The notes beneath the pieces were generated by a model that saw only the letters and a program-made list of their open reading frames with translations, was not told where the DNA came from and searched no databases. The position numbers and the translations under genes were made by a program. From Ignavibacteria bacterium (GTDB lineage Bacteria; Bacteroidota; Ignavibacteria; Tepidaquicellales; Tepidaquicellaceae): a DNA stretch of 64,000 nucleotides. Below are positions 870-36,358 of the stretch, piece by piece (position 1 is the first letter of the stretch; each line of letters begins with the position of its first letter). The DNA lies in assembly GCA_019187405.1 (NCBI GenBank), contig JABAQZ010000027.1:39610-103609 (forward strand). The letters run 5' to 3'.

Positions 870-927
870 AATAATAAAATAAAAACGCTTCAATTTTTTC
901 CGAACCCAATGAAAAAACTAAAGCGTT
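870..927 (-). terminator. Intrinsic terminator-like hairpin acting as the riboswitch expression platform
   Basis: Minus strand reads AACGCTTTAGTTTTTTC-attgggttcg-GAAAAAATTGAAGCGTT (about 17 bp stem including G-U pairs) followed by TTTTTATTTTATTATTTT. It lies between the TPP aptamer and the receptor start codon. Confidence 0.7.
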
Positions 928-937
928 AAAAAAATCT

Positions 938-1012
938 TAACTTCCTTCGCCGGCATTATCCGTAGCAGGTTCGAGGGTTTAATCTCAGCTTGTGTCAGCA
1001 CCCCTTGTAAAA
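938..1012 (-). promoter_or_regulatory. TPP (thiamine pyrophosphate, THI-box) riboswitch aptamer
   Basis: Minus strand reads AGGGGTGCTGACACAAGCTGAGATTAAACCCTCGAACCTGCTACGGATAATGCCGGCGAAGGAAG. This carries the hallmark GGGGTGC..CTGAGA..ACCC..GAACCTG..GGATAATGCC.GCGAAGGGA blocks of the THI element. Confidence 0.85.
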
Positions 1013-1164
1013 TTTCCTATAAAAAGAGCTGATTAAATGTATTTTAAAGATGATCCAATTACAAGTTAATTTAAGATAAAAAAAATTTTTAAAAATTAAA
1101 TCCGAGTTGCTGAAATTTCCGTAATTTTGATTAGAATTTAATAAACTTTTGAAAGGAATTAAAA

Positions 1165-8373: not shown

Positions 8374-11300
8374 TCAGAAAAATGCTTTAATCTCGCCTCT
8401 GCCTGTATGAATGACTTTTCGTCCTCCTTCTGCCCTGCCGTCATAATTTAATGTTGCCTGAAGATTTTTGCTGATGCTGTAATCAAAGAACAATCTCCAG
8501 ATATAACTTTTTCCCGGAACGCTCCCGTTAGTAAGCTCATAAGGATAAGTCACTCCTGCATCATTAAGCAGAATTTCATCCCGTTGGAGTTCAAACCGCA
8601 CCCTTCCCTGAAGCGTAAAGGAATAAATAAATCTCAAAACTTGCTGATTAATGTCGGCAGTTGTAGGAACAAAAGGATAATAATCAGTAGCTCTGCTGAA
8701 ATTTATCTGAAAACCGCTTTCGACTTCTTGAATCGGTCTGTATGAAAAGTCCGTGATCACCCCGTCTGATTTGATGTTTCTGTTTCTTACTGAGTTTGAA
8801 GGAGCATCATTTCTGTCAACTTTATTCTGATATTCCAGAAATGTAGTAAGATCTTTTGTAAGTCCGAGCTTCAGCTTTACTGACTTTTGAATGGTGAAGA
8901 ATCTTTCGTTTCCGCTGACAAACTGGTTAAATGTTTTTTGCTCAATGTATCTGAGTTTCAGCGAATAGTTTGGATTGAATTCAAAAAAATTAATGTCCTG
9001 TTGAAACAGCTGTGTACCGAAAAGCGTATTTGAGTCATTCTGAAAAGTTGAAAAGTTAAGAAAATAAATATTATCCGTATTCGGATCCTGACTGTTTTCT
9101 TCCGTTCGAAAATAAGTTTCCGTTGAAATATTTCTTAATACATCGGAGAAAAAATCATCTCCGGAAATTGTAAAAAATCTCGAAGGTCTGAAATTTAGTC
9201 TTGCTGAAGTATTGAGACCGGTTATTGGAAACAGCTGTGTGGACTGGCGGAAGATTCTGATGTAATTACCGTCATTAAAATTTGTAAGTTGAAATTCATT
9301 TTCATCCTTAAGTCCGTTGCCGTTCAGGTCTCCGAGATAAATATAATTGCCTTCTCCTAAAGGAACCTGCACAAAATCTTTTTCTCTTTTTGATTCCCTT
9401 TCACTTGTAACATTATAATACAAATCCGTCTGCAGTCCCGTATTAAACGGGTCAATCCTTGTCTGCCAGTTAACCAGCGCTGTTTTGCTGTTGGTATTGG
9501 TTTCCGAAACAAATTCATCTGTAAATTTTTTATTTCTGAAAGTAAGTTCAAAAATTGTCGACAGCCATTGAAGCCCTCTGTATCCGACTCCGTATGTCTG
9601 TGTAAAAGCTTCGCTTTCTTTTTGCATAACGCCTCCGACAGGCAGATTATCTTCTCTGTATCCGAATTCAGTAAAGATGTTCAGATTTTCAAAATTATTC
9701 AGAATGAACTTCGGCTTTATTTCGTAATAAGAAAAACTTCCTGATGTCAGGCTGTCGTTTCTAACCGTACCGATATTGTTTTCCCTGTTTTCCTGAATGT
9801 AATCTGCTCTGAATTCGAGATTCGTATTTTCAAATGACAAACCTCCGAAATATTTTCTGTAACCTGCCGTTGCGAATTGCCTGATCCAACTGCTTTTTGT
9901 GTTTATTGTTCTGTTGTCTGATTTAATGTATTCTATTCTGTATCTCGCATCAGGTATTCCCATTGTATCGTTTCTAATAAAAAATTCTCCCGTTGCTCTG
10001 GTTGCGTCAAATAAATCTCCTCTTAAAAGCTGACCGAATGACGCATTGAAGTTCATGTAATTTACCGGAGACAGATTCAAATATGCTTCATGAAGATTTT
10101 CCGTAAGTTTATTTGAATCCTGAATGTCATATTCTCTGTAAAACTCTACCGGATTGTATCTCTCAAGAGGAGTAAAAATTTTGTTTACCAGTTTTTCTCT
10201 GAGTTTAAGTTCAAATGCATTCAGCTTCATGCCAAACAGCTTGAAATCATATTTGTTTATTCCGAGTTCACCAAGCATTGCTACACCTGAATTGTTGTTG
10301 TCATCCGCATCGGAAAATTTATTTGCATCCAGTACAGAAACGGCAGACTCGAGATTAAATGTAAACTCTTTTCTCGGAGATGATTCATATTTTAAGTTTA
10401 TATCAGCCACCTGATATGAATTCGGAATGGGTATGAAAATAACCGTATCATAGATTCCCTGTCCCGGTCCTTTAAAGTTATACTGATAAGAGCTTTCCTG
10501 AACATAATTTCCTTTTCCCTGTCCGACAAACGAAAATACCACCTGATAAACTGCAGATGAATCCCCCGGTAAATACTTGTAATATGAAAGAGTTTCTTTA
10601 TTTATGATTGTATCTGCTTTGGCATAAAGTCCGAGACCTATTCCGGTGGAAGTATCGGCGCCGACAAACTGTACTCCCGATTTCACGGCTTTAAATTTAT
10701 CATCGCCTGCATTGGTAAGTATTTCCCTGTCTTCTTCAGTTAAAGTAAAATCAATAGTTTTATCTTCATTATCATTTTCATTAACATAAGATGCCGATAG
10801 TGAGAGTTTGTTATTAAGAAACCTCAGCTCATTTGCTCCGGTAATAATTGATCGTGAATATTTTCTGTCAGTATATTCAAAGTCAACAATTATTCTCGAT
10901 GCGCTTGTAATGAGGCGTTTATTTGTAAAAGTTATCGTTCCGATTCCGTAATCTATAACATAATCTGCCTGTTCGCCTCTTGTCATAGAAACGCCGTCGA
11001 GATAAACCTGTTCTGAACCGGATAAAACGAGAATGTTAAGTTCGTTATCATTTCCAACAAGTATGTAAGGTCCCTGATTGTTGTCCTGACCGTTGAAAGA
11101 ATTTGAGCTGAACTTACCTCTCTGTATAGCGCCGCTTAAAATAATATTGCCTGGTCCGTAGTCGCTGTATGCTTTTGCACCCTGTATTTTCCTTTTGAAA
11201 TTCATAAACTCGGTGTTAATAATATCCACGTTAATGTCGCCGATCGTTCCGGTAAAGCGGGGATTTTTAATTTCAATAAATACATTGTCAAGCTCCTGTA

Positions 11301-29208: not shown

Positions 29209-29997
29209 TTAATTCATCAGAAGTTCAGGTCTGAATTCAAAATGCATAGTATCATAATGATACCATTTGCCACCCCAAATGAAACCGTATTTTTCGAACA
29301 CTGTAGCGATTTCAATTGGTATTCTGTTTACATATTCAGTGTTACCATTCCATTTCCAGTAATCGGAATACTTTGTATTAATGTCAATTGCGATTCCGAA
29401 AGAATGCGTGCTTAAGCGATTTGTACCTGCAATTACTCTCCAGTAGAATGTTCCGCCAATATTTTTTAGATACTTCTGATATTCTTCAGGGAGATCTTTT
29501 AATTCATTTACCACTGACTTCAGATTTTTGTCGGCGCTGTTTATTTTGGTGAACAGGACAACAGAGCCGTCAACCCATTCAACTTCGGTTAAATTATTTC
29601 TTACTTCATCTTCATTGTTTCCGTACATTTTTAGAAAAAACGGTTCATATCTTATTCTGCCTGGTTCGAAATTAAAATCAGGAGGAGATTTCCATTCGGT
29701 TCCTTTTTCGTATTTCTGAAACATCATATCTTCAATATCTGGATTATTGAGCAAGTCATCATGATTTTTATCTGAAATGCCGTCATGATAAATCATTTCG
29801 GTTCCATCTTTCCAGTATAATATATTATCTGCAGCTGAATCAAGAAAATCCGGATAAGCAATTAGTAAATCTTTTAAACCTTTTGATAAAAGAGAATCGG
29901 AATTTGGTTTGGACGATTGAAGTTTATGAAATGATGCAACATTATTATTTGTATATAGGACAAAGTGTAATAGAATTAAAAAAACTGCAAGTTTCAT
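29209..29997 (-). CDS. M15-family metallopeptidase (D-Ala-D-Ala carboxypeptidase-like)
   Basis: STHSFGIAIDIN (SxHxxGxAxD) and DTMHFEF motifs, plus a signal peptide. Confidence 0.7.
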   Translation of the reverse strand: MKLAVFLILLHFVLYTNNNVASFHKLQSSKPNSDSLLSKGLKDLLIAYPDFLDSAADNILYWKDGTEMIYHDGISDKNHDDLLNNPDIEDMMFQKYEKGTEWKSPPDFNFEPGRIRYEPFFLKMYGNNEDEVRNNLTEVEWVDGSVVLFTKINSADKNLKSVVNELKDLPEEYQKYLKNIGGTFYWRVIAGTNRLSTHSFGIAIDINTKYSDYWKWNGNTEYVNRIPIEIATVFEKYGFIWGGKWYHYDTMHFEFRPELLMN

Positions 29998-30041
29998 ATT
30001 AGATATAATAAATAAAAAGTATTTAACTAAAAATAAAAAAA

Positions 30042-30384
30042 TTTTTTTTTGGGGGGAGGGGGGGGGGAACCCTGACAGCGTTTTGAAAAATTTTTAGGGT
30101 AATAGGGATTTCGGAAAAACGCTGTCAGGGTTTTCTTTTTCTGAAGCTGAGACATCAAATTTATATTGTACAGAGTTACGGCATTTTTTAATAAGCTCAG
30201 CTAACATTTAAAATTTATTTTCTTGTGTGTCATGGATAATTACATAATATACGGCTTTGTATGTTTTATTAACAAAACAAAGACTCTGCTCCGAAAAAAG
30301 CAACCCTGACAGCGTTCCAATACACCTCCCCTCTTTCCCGATTTTCAAAAACGCTGTCAGGGTTCCCCCCCCCCCAAAAAAAAA
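30042..30384. repeat. Composite palindromic element: homopolymer-capped terminal inverted repeats, each end forming its own long-loop hairpin
   Basis: Left end: T9-G6AG10-AACCCTGACAGCGTTTT (to 30084), which pairs with AAAACGCTGTCAGGGTT at 30116-30132. Right end: AACCCTGACAGCGTT (30302-30316) pairs with AACGCTGTCAGGGTT (30350-30364), followed by C11-A9. The outer ~40 bp of the two ends are reverse complements apart from homopolymer length. Confidence 0.7.
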
Positions 30385-30549
30385 TTAAAAATCTCAACCG
30401 TAAACCCATATTAACGGTATCTCACTTAAATAAAAAGTTACGCTGCAGCAAATTGTTATGAATTTCAATTCCACTGCAGCGCCGGAAGGAAACGGTTTAG
30501 GAGAACAATTCGGAAACTCCTAATCCCGAATTAAATTTAATCTAAAATT

Positions 30550-30927
30550 TCATTTGCTTTCTTCTTGTGATGTCCGTTTATTGATAGTGACGGTTTTAAA
30601 TAAGTATGATAAAAGAAAATATCCTTGCATGCCAGTCAGCAATGTCCATAAAAGAAAACTTCCTTCCTATCCTGCATAGAATTTTGAAATCAGCAGACTA
30701 AGCGGTAAGTCCGATGAGTTGAGCTCCCTAACATGACAGAATTGAAACTGATATGTAATTATCAGATACATTAAATATACCGAAATCAGTATAGTAACAA
30801 AAACAGAAAATCTGAAAAAAATTCTTGCTGGCTTGATGAACTTTATTTTTCCTCTGAATACCAGAAAATATAGTATTGCAGAAATGATACTTAAAGCAAA
30901 TCCCGTGATTATTAAACTCTTTCCCAT
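30550..30927 (-). pseudogene. ccmF: ccmF (cytochrome c heme lyase) N-terminal remnant with in-frame TAG, 3'-truncated
   Basis: The 86-aa ORF ends ..VRELNSSDLPLSLLISKFYAG-TAG. The same frame continues EGSFLLWTLLTG.. (compare E. coli ..[33 protein letters not shown]..). The reading frame closes at 30550, only ~125 codons in total, whereas E. coli CcmF continues well beyond this region. It lies directly downstream of ccmE. Confidence 0.7.
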
Positions 30928-30969: not shown

Positions 30970-31362
30970 TCAGCTTCCCGGATGTTTTACTTCTTCACCT
31001 TTTCCTTCATACTTAGAAGGACATTTTGTCAGTACTTCTTTTGCATAAAACACACCGTCTTTTACTTTGCCTTTTGCTACCACAGATTCTGCCATTTCAA
31101 AATTGTTAGGACGTGCTCCGGTTAGCACCACTTTCATTTCTTTGTTATTCTCATCTTTCATGTAAAAAATGAATTCATTTGTCTCTGATTCAAATTTTGA
31201 TTCTTTATCTTTAATCCAGATGCCTTTAACCTGACATGTCTTTTTATCAATCGTTGCCTTATCAAAATTTGAATACTCGATCTGGTTTTCAGAAAATGTC
31301 AGAAATCCTGCTATCAGAAAAACCACTATTGCTGTTATTGCTGCTATTGTTGACTTTTTCAT
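30970..31362 (-). CDS. ccmE: Cytochrome c maturation heme chaperone CcmE, CxxxY variant
   Basis: N-terminal anchor, OB-fold-like core (..MKVVLTGARPNNFEMAESVVAKGKVKDGVFYAKEVLTKCPSKYEG). Cys114/Tyr118 replace the canonical HxxxY heme-binding motif. Confidence 0.85.
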   Translation of the reverse strand: MKKSTIAAITAIVVFLIAGFLTFSENQIEYSNFDKATIDKKTCQVKGIWIKDKESKFESETNEFIFYMKDENNKEMKVVLTGARPNNFEMAESVVAKGKVKDGVFYAKEVLTKCPSKYEGKGEEVKHPGS

Positions 31363-34918: not shown

Positions 34919-35821
34919 ATGAAAAAGAAAGTTGTGAGAGAAAATGATTATTTAAACTCTGATAAAGTTTTTGATAAACTAGTTTCTTATATTTCTAAAA
35001 ATGGCGTTCAAAATGCTATATTTCCCATTTTTAAAACTAAAGATTTTGCTTTATATAATAATGATTGTTTGGAAGTAATGACCAGATTTCCAGATAATTA
35101 TATTGATATGGTTTTTGCTGATCCACCTTATATGCTTTCAAATAATGGTTTTACTTGTCAAAATGGTAGAATGGTAAGTGTAAACAAAGGTAAATGGGAT
35201 AAATCAAAAGGATTTGAACAAGACTTAAATTTTCATGAAGAATGGATTTCTGAATGTAAAAGAATTTTGAAGCCTTCCGGTACAATTTGGATAAGTGGAA
35301 CATATCATTCAATATATCAATGTGGTTATTTACTTCAAAAATTGGGATTCCATATATTAAATGATATTACTTGGTTTAAACCAAATGCTTCTCCTAATTT
35401 ATCTTGTAGATTTTTTACAGCTTCACACGAAACACTAATTTGGGCTCGAAAAGATAAGAATGCAAAGCATTATTTTGATTATAAATCAATGAAAGAAGGT
35501 CATTTCCCTGAAGATCAATTAAAAAAAGAAAAATCTCAGATGAGATCTGTTTGGAGTTTAAATACTCCTTCTTCTGCAGAAAAAGAATTTGGGAAACACC
35601 CTACTCAAAAACCGTTGGCTTTACTTCGAAGAATAATTAAAGCTTCCACTAAGGATGGAGATATTATTTTTGATCCGTTTAATGGTGGAGGTACAACAGG
35701 TATTGCTTCAGTACAAATTAGTAATAGAAAATACATTGGATGTGAAATTGATTTAAAATTCATAAACTTAACAATTAAGAAATATCAAAGTTTGAATATG
35801 ACGCAGAAATTATTCAATTAA
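34919..35821 (+). CDS. Type II DNA methyltransferase, beta-class (N6-adenine or N4-cytosine; the DPPY motif favours N6A)
   Basis: Motif IV VFADPPYML lies upstream of motif I IIFDPFNGGGTTG (beta-class order), and ..HPTQKPLALLRRII.. is typical of the N4/N6 MTase family. Confidence 0.85.
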   Translation: MKKKVVRENDYLNSDKVFDKLVSYISKNGVQNAIFPIFKTKDFALYNNDCLEVMTRFPDNYIDMVFADPPYMLSNNGFTCQNGRMVSVNKGKWDKSKGFEQDLNFHEEWISECKRILKPSGTIWISGTYHSIYQCGYLLQKLGFHILNDITWFKPNASPNLSCRFFTASHETLIWARKDKNAKHYFDYKSMKEGHFPEDQLKKEKSQMRSVWSLNTPSSAEKEFGKHPTQKPLALLRRIIKASTKDGDIIFDPFNGGGTTGIASVQISNRKYIGCEIDLKFINLTIKKYQSLNMTQKLFN

Positions 35822-35836
35822 AAATTTTAATTTTAA

Positions 35837-36358
35837 ATGATTAAGAAAGGTAAAGGTGGAGCAAATACAATAAGTGGTTTGCTTTTTGAGGGTAAGACGG
35901 ATCTATCCACATTTCTAAATTCTTTGAAGGATTATGAAGTTAAATCAAATAAAGTATTCTATAAAGAAAATCAAGTAGCAGAGATTTGTAAAAAACATGA
36001 ATTGTATAAATTTCTGAAAGCGAAGAAAGTTGATTGGAAAAAAATAATTTCTAAAAAATTATTACCAGATGATAGTATTTATATTATTGTTAAAAACACT
36101 TTGTTTATAATCGAATGTAAATTTCAGCAAGTTGCCGGATCTGTTGATGAAAAACTTCAAACTTGCGATTTTAAAAAGAAACAATATAAAAAACTTTTAT
36201 CTCAGGTCAATATAGACGTAGAATATATATATCTATTGAGTGATTGGTTTAAAAAACCCGGGTACAAAGATGTATTAGATTATATAATAAGTGTTGGATG
36301 TTCTTATTATTTTAACTTTATTCCATTAAAAAAATTTGGATTACCAGTGTCTGATTAG
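35837..36358 (+). CDS. Putative type II restriction endonuclease (PD-(D/E)xK-like)
   Basis: Starts 15 bp after the methyltransferase stop and shares its extreme AT-rich composition. Candidate motif ..LPDDSIYIIVKNTLFIIECKFQQ (D...ExK). No specific enzyme recognised. Confidence 0.5.
   Translation: MIKKGKGGANTISGLLFEGKTDLSTFLNSLKDYEVKSNKVFYKENQVAEICKKHELYKFLKAKKVDWKKIISKKLLPDDSIYIIVKNTLFIIECKFQQVAGSVDEKLQTCDFKKKQYKKLLSQVNIDVEYIYLLSDWFKKPGYKDVLDYIISVGCSYYFNFIPLKKFGLPVSD

Follow-up and report, generated by a model that had tools for sequence, protein, structure and literature searches.

The element described here is a 343-bp palindromic structure at positions 30042-30384 of the window, which is the whole 64-kb stretch of Ignavibacteria DNA analysed (36% GC; all positions refer to it). 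It lies directly upstream of a gene encoding an M15_4 peptidase and is an inverted doublet of a ~100-bp hairpin module around an unrelated AT-rich core of ~125-170 bp. A T-run and a G-run open each module and are followed by a 15-bp arm, a variable loop, the complementary arm and a T-rich tail. The structure is genuine, occupies a single locus and was seen in all contigs that were recovered for one species of uncultured Ignavibacteria. Among the readings considered below, the one tentatively favoured is that of a fixed, cis-acting hairpin doublet, which would be terminator- or insulator-like when read inwards, would carry hypermutable caps and would have arisen by the doubling of an older module.

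Architecture of the element

The 15-mer AACCCTGACAGCGTT occurs four times, at 30068-30082 and 30302-30316 on the plus strand and at 30118-30132 and 30350-30364 on the minus strand. The original prediction had described these copies as two mutually inverted hairpin modules, the left one with T9, G6-A-G10, a 17-bp stem and a 31-nt loop and the right one with a 15-bp stem, a 33-nt loop, C11 and A9; a repeat search recovered both modules in this form and at the same positions (Table 1). The 15-mer is found nowhere else in the window (four matches versus 0.09 expected; at least four in 0 of 100 shuffles), and the four boxes remain its sole sites even if three mismatches are allowed. The G or C runs of at least 8 nt in the window are likewise confined to the tracts of the element. 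The two ends, which had been proposed to be reverse complements of each other, are built from two outer inverted repeats (30058-30091/30341-30374, 34 nt, 94%; 30040-30061/30365-30386, 22 nt, 95%), and an inner inverted repeat connects 30118-30144 with 30290-30316 (27 nt, 85%). A 27-nt perfect inverted repeat bounds a 263-bp segment directly upstream of the M15 gene. On the plus strand, module B is followed by the T-rich tail TTTTCTTTTTCTG, and module A, read in the direction from ccm to M15, is followed by GCTTTTTTCGG.

For the core, comparisons with the window, the fetched loci and the spacer of the related lineage L021 (see below) detected no homology (shuffle p = 0.4). The core had been reported to lack an open reading frame (ORF); however, gene callers predict one of 37 aa on the minus strand. 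A protein search found no homologues of this ORF except itself, and it is probably spurious and not a gene.

Table 1. Positions of the element's parts and of the adjacent features in the window.
Feature	Position	Strand	Description
M15_4 (CwlK-like) peptidase gene	29209-29997	minus	signal-peptide-like N-terminus; ATG 44 bp from the T9 tract
A7 tract	30035-30041		adjoins T9; reads T7 on the opposite strand; T7 or T8 among strains
T9 tract	30042-30050		outer end of the M15-proximal arm; pairs with A9 (30376-30384) in the foldback
G6-A-G10 tract	30051-30067		corresponds to C10TC6 on the M15 coding strand
Hairpin module B (left, M15-proximal)	30068-30132		17-bp perfect stem (30068-30084/30116-30132); 31-nt G-rich loop
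37-aa ORF	30207 to 30094	minus	gene-caller prediction, probably spurious; runs from the core into module B; only at the element locus
Core	30133-30301		AT-rich; outer 12-20 bp on each side still inverted repeat; central ~125-145 bp unique
Hairpin module A (right, ccm side)	30302-30364		15-bp perfect stem (30302-30316/30350-30364); 33-nt loop
C11 tract	30365-30375		with A9, corresponds to T9G11 on the minus strand
A9 tract	30376-30384		with C11, corresponds to T9G11 on the minus strand
hp2	30441-30481	minus	downstream of ccmF; T-rich tail, terminator-like
hp1	30494-30526	minus	downstream of ccmF; invariant 13-nt loop TTTCCGAATTGTT; covarying stem in 4 lineages
ccmF pseudogene	30549-30927	minus	residues 1-116 at 30927-30580, stop after codon 86; last 17 codons at 30599-30549
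CcmE gene	30970-31362	minus	intact

Recovery of the element in independent assemblies

Exact look-ups by the flanking M15 protein, the 37-aa ORF and CcmE returned 10, 18 and 24 contigs, respectively. These originate from JGI 3300024274 and from Logan assemblies, the latter covering at least 11 runs whose accession numbers lie far apart (SRR10609163, SRR10609165, SRR10609168, SRR10823753, SRR27710294, SRR27710295, SRR29149429, SRR29708229, SRR34141492, SRR34539590 and others). All displayed contigs that span the region have the order CcmE, element and M15 in a single orientation, and ~420 bp outside the homopolymer tracts are identical across all of them. The element itself is identical in the JGI contig and in the Logan contigs of SRR10609163 and SRR10823753, and partial contigs from SRR10609168 and SRR10609165 are identical over the covered stretch. 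Two short Logan contigs break inside the element, one of which (L004) starts at ~30221 in the core, while the other (L040) ends at ~30319 in the loop of module A; these breaks may reflect a drop in coverage or heterogeneity at hairpins and homopolymers.

The two broken contigs, together with the long G and C runs at both ends, could be taken as signs of a chimeric join through poly-G from two-colour chemistry, as had been considered in the original prediction, or of another assembly or sequencing error. However, the same 343 bp were assembled at the same place in one JGI metagenome and independently in Logan assemblies of at least 11 runs, tract lengths aside, and therefore the element is not an artefact. 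A homologous module in another species and flanks that are collinear with related genomes speak against an artefact as well, which leaves this explanation with virtually no probability. Long runs of G or C in metagenome contigs are not necessarily artefacts.

Variation of the homopolymer tracts

Strain differences within the element are restricted to the homopolymer tracts, as would be expected from the slippage that had been suggested for them. Four alleles were found in three strain backgrounds with a flank divergence of 0.25-0.5%, namely T9G11/C10TC6/T7 (allele 1), T10G10/C9TC6/T7 (allele 2), T12G10/C10TC9/T8 (allele 3) and T12G10/C10TC6/T7 (allele 4), and two or more independent runs yielded each of alleles 1 to 3. 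In sibling runs, two contigs (L012 and L013) show 0 mismatches over 2352 bp and differ solely in their tracts, which read C10TC9/T8 in one and C10TC6/T7 in the other (three C and one T). We infer from this variation that the caps are slippage-prone tracts, which vary between otherwise identical strains.

The C-tract is located 60-77 bp upstream of the M15 ATG. In allele 3 (C10TC9/T8), an upstream ORF running through module B and the poly-C is fused in frame to M15, and therefore tract length toggles an upstream extension of M15. Gene callers extended the M15 ORF on this allele by 54 codons, which run through the poly-C (read as poly-proline) and the hairpin (L010, 1723-2673; L012, 1443-2351). 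Cap length may modulate the expression of M15 or its 5' end.

The module in related lineages

The homologues of the M15 protein are named as Ignavibacteria in their sources. Three of the loci (L021, L022 and L023) encode M15 proteins that are 68-73% identical to that of the window, have the same downstream PAP2 gene and possess an intact ccmF. Each carries a single module, GGGGG-AACCCTGACAGCGTTT-(34-nt loop)-AAACGCTGTCAGGGTT-GGTTTG, with a 16-bp stem, which is placed after two ccmF hairpins and ~65 bp before the M15 ATG. Read from the outside inwards, both modules of the window align with the L021 module through the G-run, the arm, the loop start T(T/G)GAAAA, the second arm and the T-rich inner flank, and module A is the counterpart of the single L021 module by its position and inner flank. 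The module is absent in four lineages with ccmF directly upstream of M15 (L015, L024, L030 and L033), and in a neighbour-joining tree of M15 the window groups with L021, if weakly. In L015 (6844-7275) and L033 (3384-3815), a gene resembling that for phage T4 gp19 (tail tube) follows M15, whereas a PAP2-like gene is found in the window and in L021.

Because the nearest lineage holds one copy at the same place, the module is judged to predate the doublet. In the simplest history, a single module would have been gained in the common ancestor of the window and L021 lineages. The T and G runs would then have expanded in the lineage of the window, in which a second, inverted copy would also have arisen, either through an inverted duplication or because another module was inserted locally. 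Related lineages thus make it possible to tell an old hairpin module apart from a duplication that is specific to one lineage.

Constraint on the arms and their presence in a Mu-like phage

The 15-mer is itself near-palindromic (AAC-C-CTG-A-CAG-C-GTT) and pairs with itself at 6 of 7 positions, for which a chance probability of ~0.001 was calculated. The 16-bp stems are 100% identical between the window and the L021 lineage, the M15 proteins of which are 73% identical, and the loops and flanks have diverged. The ccmF hairpins next to the element differ in this respect, as their stems covary through compensatory changes. The 15-bp arm appears to be constrained in sequence and not in pairing alone, and this constraint suggests recognition by a putative sequence-specific factor.

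The same 15-nt arms are found in the 12.9-kb contig of a Mu-like phage (L014, IMGVR_UViG_3300035394_000303; L006 is the same sequence), which encodes portal_Mu, Gp36 and other phage proteins. The contig contains three perfect hairpins at 1442-1474, 2704-2736 and 11164-11220, whose loops are 3, 3 and 27 nt long, and a total of seven box matches versus 0.63 expected; at one site, 20 of 20 nt match the window. One of the hairpins, in which the centre base shows a compensatory swap, falls within the 3' tail of the portal ORF, and at 2704-2740 the 3-nt loop hairpin is followed by TTTT, which is the canonical form of a terminator. Scans of the viral collection yielded no other viral contigs with these hairpins, and a search with the portal protein for relatives returned only the L014 phage itself.

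The arm pattern fits either a sequence-specific recognition unit or a small mobile palindrome, between which the data do not discriminate. The occurrence of identical arms in a Mu-like phage would suggest a recognition system that is common to host and phage. It is conceivable, if rather doubtful, that an undescribed family of small palindromic elements exists in Ignavibacteria chromosomes and a Mu-like phage, which would be recognised by a putative sequence-specific protein; the doublet of the window with its hypermutable caps would then represent a new tract-tuned switch or insulator for a cell-wall hydrolase gene.

Folding and proposed function

As single-stranded DNA, the 366 nt from 30030 to 30395 fold into one foldback with a free energy of -80 kcal/mol (z = -10.9). 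A search of Rfam 15 assigned the element to no family at the gathering score; the best score was 31 bits versus a threshold of 80, and the matches were generic long hairpins. As RNA read from the outside inwards, the modules reach -38.6 and -45.7 kcal/mol, and the G-run and the U-rich tail pair with each other; from the inside outwards, the folds are weaker (-26 and -28 kcal/mol), and C and A runs come next. The core contains weak sigma-70-like hexamers (30275 to 30244) and one TAnnTTTG motif (30163 to 30156), both of which are on the minus strand and face M15.

According to the proposed mechanism, each module would form a very stable RNA hairpin with a U-rich tail when transcribed inwards, and the G-run would extend the stem by G.U pairing. 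The pair of modules would then serve as cis-acting hairpins of a terminator- or insulator-like kind on either side of the region just upstream of M15, and the slippage-prone caps may tune M15 expression or its 5' end. As the modules are stable hairpins with U-rich tails in the inward direction and the phage carries a canonical copy, a terminator- or insulator-like pair is favoured over the other readings. If this is true, a poorly studied, uncultured phylum would provide a compact natural case of a gene whose upstream region is enclosed by hairpins that face inwards and carry slippage-prone caps at both ends.

Several observations weigh against this proposal. The loops of 31-33 nt far exceed those of canonical intrinsic terminators (3-8 nt), and a consensus terminator scan did not call the modules. 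A terminator-like hairpin is already present for ccmF, and module B is oriented towards a side from which no nearby gene is transcribed. No promoter can be assigned, the sigma-70-like hexamers being weak and TAnnTTTG not being enriched in the window. The arms that are identical in the phage would also be expected from a mobile element. The grouping of the window with L021 comes from one protein with a small gap in identity (73% versus 71%). Finally, the differences in tract length could partly be Illumina or assembly errors in long G/C runs, yet three of the alleles recur in at least two independent runs each.

Alternative explanations

The element could instead be a small non-autonomous mobile palindrome of the type of miniature inverted-repeat transposable elements (MITEs), repetitive extragenic palindromes (REPs) or REP doublets forming hairpins (REPINs), with 15-bp arms that would be recognised by a putative transposase. 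This explanation is less probable than the cis-acting doublet, although it deserves to be taken seriously. Either the hairpin module would be the mobile unit, and two insertions in opposite orientations would have produced the doublet, or the element as a whole would be a MITE with ~105-bp terminal inverted repeats, and L021 would have kept half of this MITE. The architecture agrees with this explanation: inverted arms of ~105 bp with 85-95% identity surround a unique core, the total length is 343 bp and no real ORF is present, only the 37-aa ORF without homologues. The absence of the module in four related lineages with the same ccmF-M15 neighbourhood also fits a mobile unit. Furthermore, conserved ends with a variable interior are the usual pattern of MITEs, and the three sites in the Mu-like phage, including the one in the tail of the portal ORF, have identical arms and unrelated loops.

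However, the element occupies a single locus in the window, and the 18 and 24 contigs read all show this same locus and no empty site. The exact hairpin pattern had no match from Ignavibacteria in 185,579 species genomes, in which only an unrelated 62-bp palindrome in a Mycolicibacterium was found. Beyond the single phage, the metagenome contigs, which evidently do not include the source metagenome, and the viral sets gave only one unrelated match with a 12-nt stem. This match (L007, 10085-10150) is a hairpin in the spacer between secD and secF of an unrelated metagenome contig, with the 12-nt arms CCTGACAGCGTT and a third degenerate box in the loop, and is compatible with chance. A BLAST search of the element against phage and plasmid records revealed no relatives but chance matches only (E of at least 0.1), and a search of representative proteins with the translation of module A produced only weak matches to long repeat proteins. 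Apart from the one phage, neither further copies nor an insertion polymorphism were thus detected in the window, in the 18 and 24 contigs or in the genome, metagenome and viral collections.

The flanks and the gene content are at odds with mobility as well. T9 and A9 are inverted and part of the repeat; the sequence outside them is A/T of low complexity only, and no direct repeat adjoins the element as a target-site duplication would. The window ORFs scanned include neither a transposase nor a gene for a REP-associated tyrosine transposase (RAYT, a Y1 transposase). According to PMC3733652, the two REP superfamilies are tagged with GTAG or CGTC at one end of the palindrome; this tag is absent here, judged from the bases 5' of the hairpins, which read GGGG, TACC, TTGT(TT) and GAAC. 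Ends of the Tn3 family (GGGG...CTGAC) were considered and dropped, with only 5-7 nt in common, no internal TAAG and no 5-bp duplication. The MITE or foldback element that had been proposed found no support, given one locus, no target-site duplication, no empty site and no copies in the scanned collections; mobility is unproven, and the element is not a proven mobile element. It may also be a REP-like unit or a protein-binding array, and the identical arms in the other lineage and in the phage are consistent with either.

A further explanation, which is considered unlikely, regards the four boxes as operators: each 15-bp near-palindrome would bind a dimer of a putative DNA-binding protein controlling M15, and the phage would carry the same boxes. 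The dyad symmetry of the 15-mer at 6 of 7 positions, the conservation of sequence and not of pairing alone across lineages and phage, and the fact that both lineages with boxes have them directly in front of M15 are in line with this idea. However, every box is paired with an exact complement, and the order within the pairs never changes (5 of 5 hairpins; a further hairpin has the compensatory swap of the centre base), which points to a hairpin unit instead of independent sites. The box spacings (18, 18, 42, 48, 50 and 51 bp) show no fixed helical phase, in the phage the sites fall within or between structural genes and not at promoters, and no candidate regulator is encoded nearby.

It has also been suggested that the element is a recombinase-invertible or phase-variable segment; as an inverton, a promoter segment would be flipped by a recombinase at the inverted repeats, which would switch M15 expression. 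The 27-nt perfect inverted repeat around a 263-bp segment immediately upstream of the gene and the weak promoter-like core hexamers that point at M15 would suit such an inverton, but we consider it improbable. Only one orientation is seen in every contig displayed, all of which are assembled contigs, and a search for the hybrid ORF expected from inversion of the core led back to the known 37-aa ORF alone. Among the window ORFs scanned, none was found to encode a recombinase, integrase or transposase, and the single module of the related lineage cannot flip a promoter. Inversion is unproven. The attC sites of integrons, which are defined by RYYYAAC and GTTRRRY core sites and by extrahelical bases in an imperfect stem, were rejected: here the stems are perfect, AAC is preceded by G or A/C mixtures, and GTT is followed by a C-run, GCTT, GGTT or TTAA.

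Decay of ccmF and other features of the window

On the minus strand, the gene order is CcmE, the ccmF remnant, the element, the M15_4 peptidase and a PAP2-like protein. The truncation of ccmF beside the element, which had been noted before, is real, and related lineages possess intact ccmF proteins of 793-813 aa. The internal loss amounts to ~2 kb, and its junction near 30580-30600 is at least 195 bp away from the element. The window contains no second copy of ccmF, and the ccmE gene next to the pseudogene is intact.

It was speculated that the element is a footprint or the agent of this deletion, for which its distance of ~280 bp from the stop of the 86-aa N-terminal ccmF ORF could be cited. 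However, the deletion is internal to ccmF, of which residues 1-116 and the last 17 codons are kept, and the two intact ccmF 3' hairpins hp1 and hp2 sit between the deletion junction and the element; the element is therefore neither a scar nor an agent of the deletion. With L021 carrying the module beside an intact ccmF, the probability of such a connection is very small, and the decay of the neighbouring ccmF is unrelated to the element.

The ccmF 3' hairpin pair is also found at 1825-1920 in L021, 1410-1500 in L024 and 140-232 in L030, i.e., in four Ignavibacteria lineages including that of the window, in which it is retained despite ccmF being a pseudogene. hp1 and hp2 may be a conserved 3' untranslated region or small-RNA element. 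Elsewhere in the window, a thiamine pyrophosphate (TPP) riboswitch reaches the Rfam gathering score (925-1015, minus strand; 55.9 bits). A gene for an N6/N4 DNA methyltransferase followed by a PDDEXK-family gene (34919-36358, plus strand) is located 5 kb from the element, and the two genes are likely a small restriction-modification pair.

Comparison with known systems

The element resembles REPs and REPINs, MITEs, contingency promoters and invertons, and among the properties that define these systems only a length polymorphism of homopolymers was found. It is a local curiosity, and the function attributed to it is inferred and unproven. Like REPs and REPINs, it is a short intergenic palindrome with conserved arms and variable spacers and forms long hairpins from inverted pairs; REPs often serve as terminators or as hairpins that stabilise mRNA. 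However, REPs number tens to hundreds per genome and have no homopolymer caps, whereas the element is found at one locus in the window and nowhere in the genome collections scanned, with neither a GTAG/CGTC tag nor a RAYT gene in view.

The Correia elements of Neisseria and the enterobacterial elements known as ERIC (enterobacterial repetitive intergenic consensus) or IRU (intergenic repeat unit) are comparable in their length of 100-350 bp, their terminal inverted repeats and their lack of coding capacity. They fold as one hairpin when transcribed and, beside genes, can supply promoters or terminators. In contrast to these multi-copy elements, which have target-site duplications (TA in the case of Correia), the element is single-copy, is not flanked by a duplication and corresponds to a single module that a related lineage has at the same site.

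Uptake sequences such as the DNA uptake sequence (DUS) of Neisseria and the uptake signal sequence (USS) of Haemophilus are sequence-specific motifs, which in inverted pairs double as terminator hairpins downstream of genes. The 15-mer likewise occurs in inverted pairs that may double as terminators; however, uptake sequences are found about once per kb, and this motif at one locus only. With the invertons of Bacteroidota, the element shares inverted repeats around a ~260-bp segment just upstream of a gene, but its repeats are much longer (~100 bp) and contain hairpins of their own, and neither a second orientation nor a recombinase is seen.

Homopolymer contingency loci are represented by the C-stretch of the fim genes of Bordetella and by the poly-G/C tracts of porA and opc of Neisseria. 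Such tracts lie between defined promoter elements or inside an ORF, whereas no promoter is mapped here and the tracts cap both ends of a palindrome; moreover, the host is an environmental member of the Ignavibacteria and not a host-adapted pathogen. What the element has in common with these loci is the presence of G/C runs of at least 10 nt directly upstream of a gene for an envelope-related protein and a tract length that varies among otherwise identical strains.

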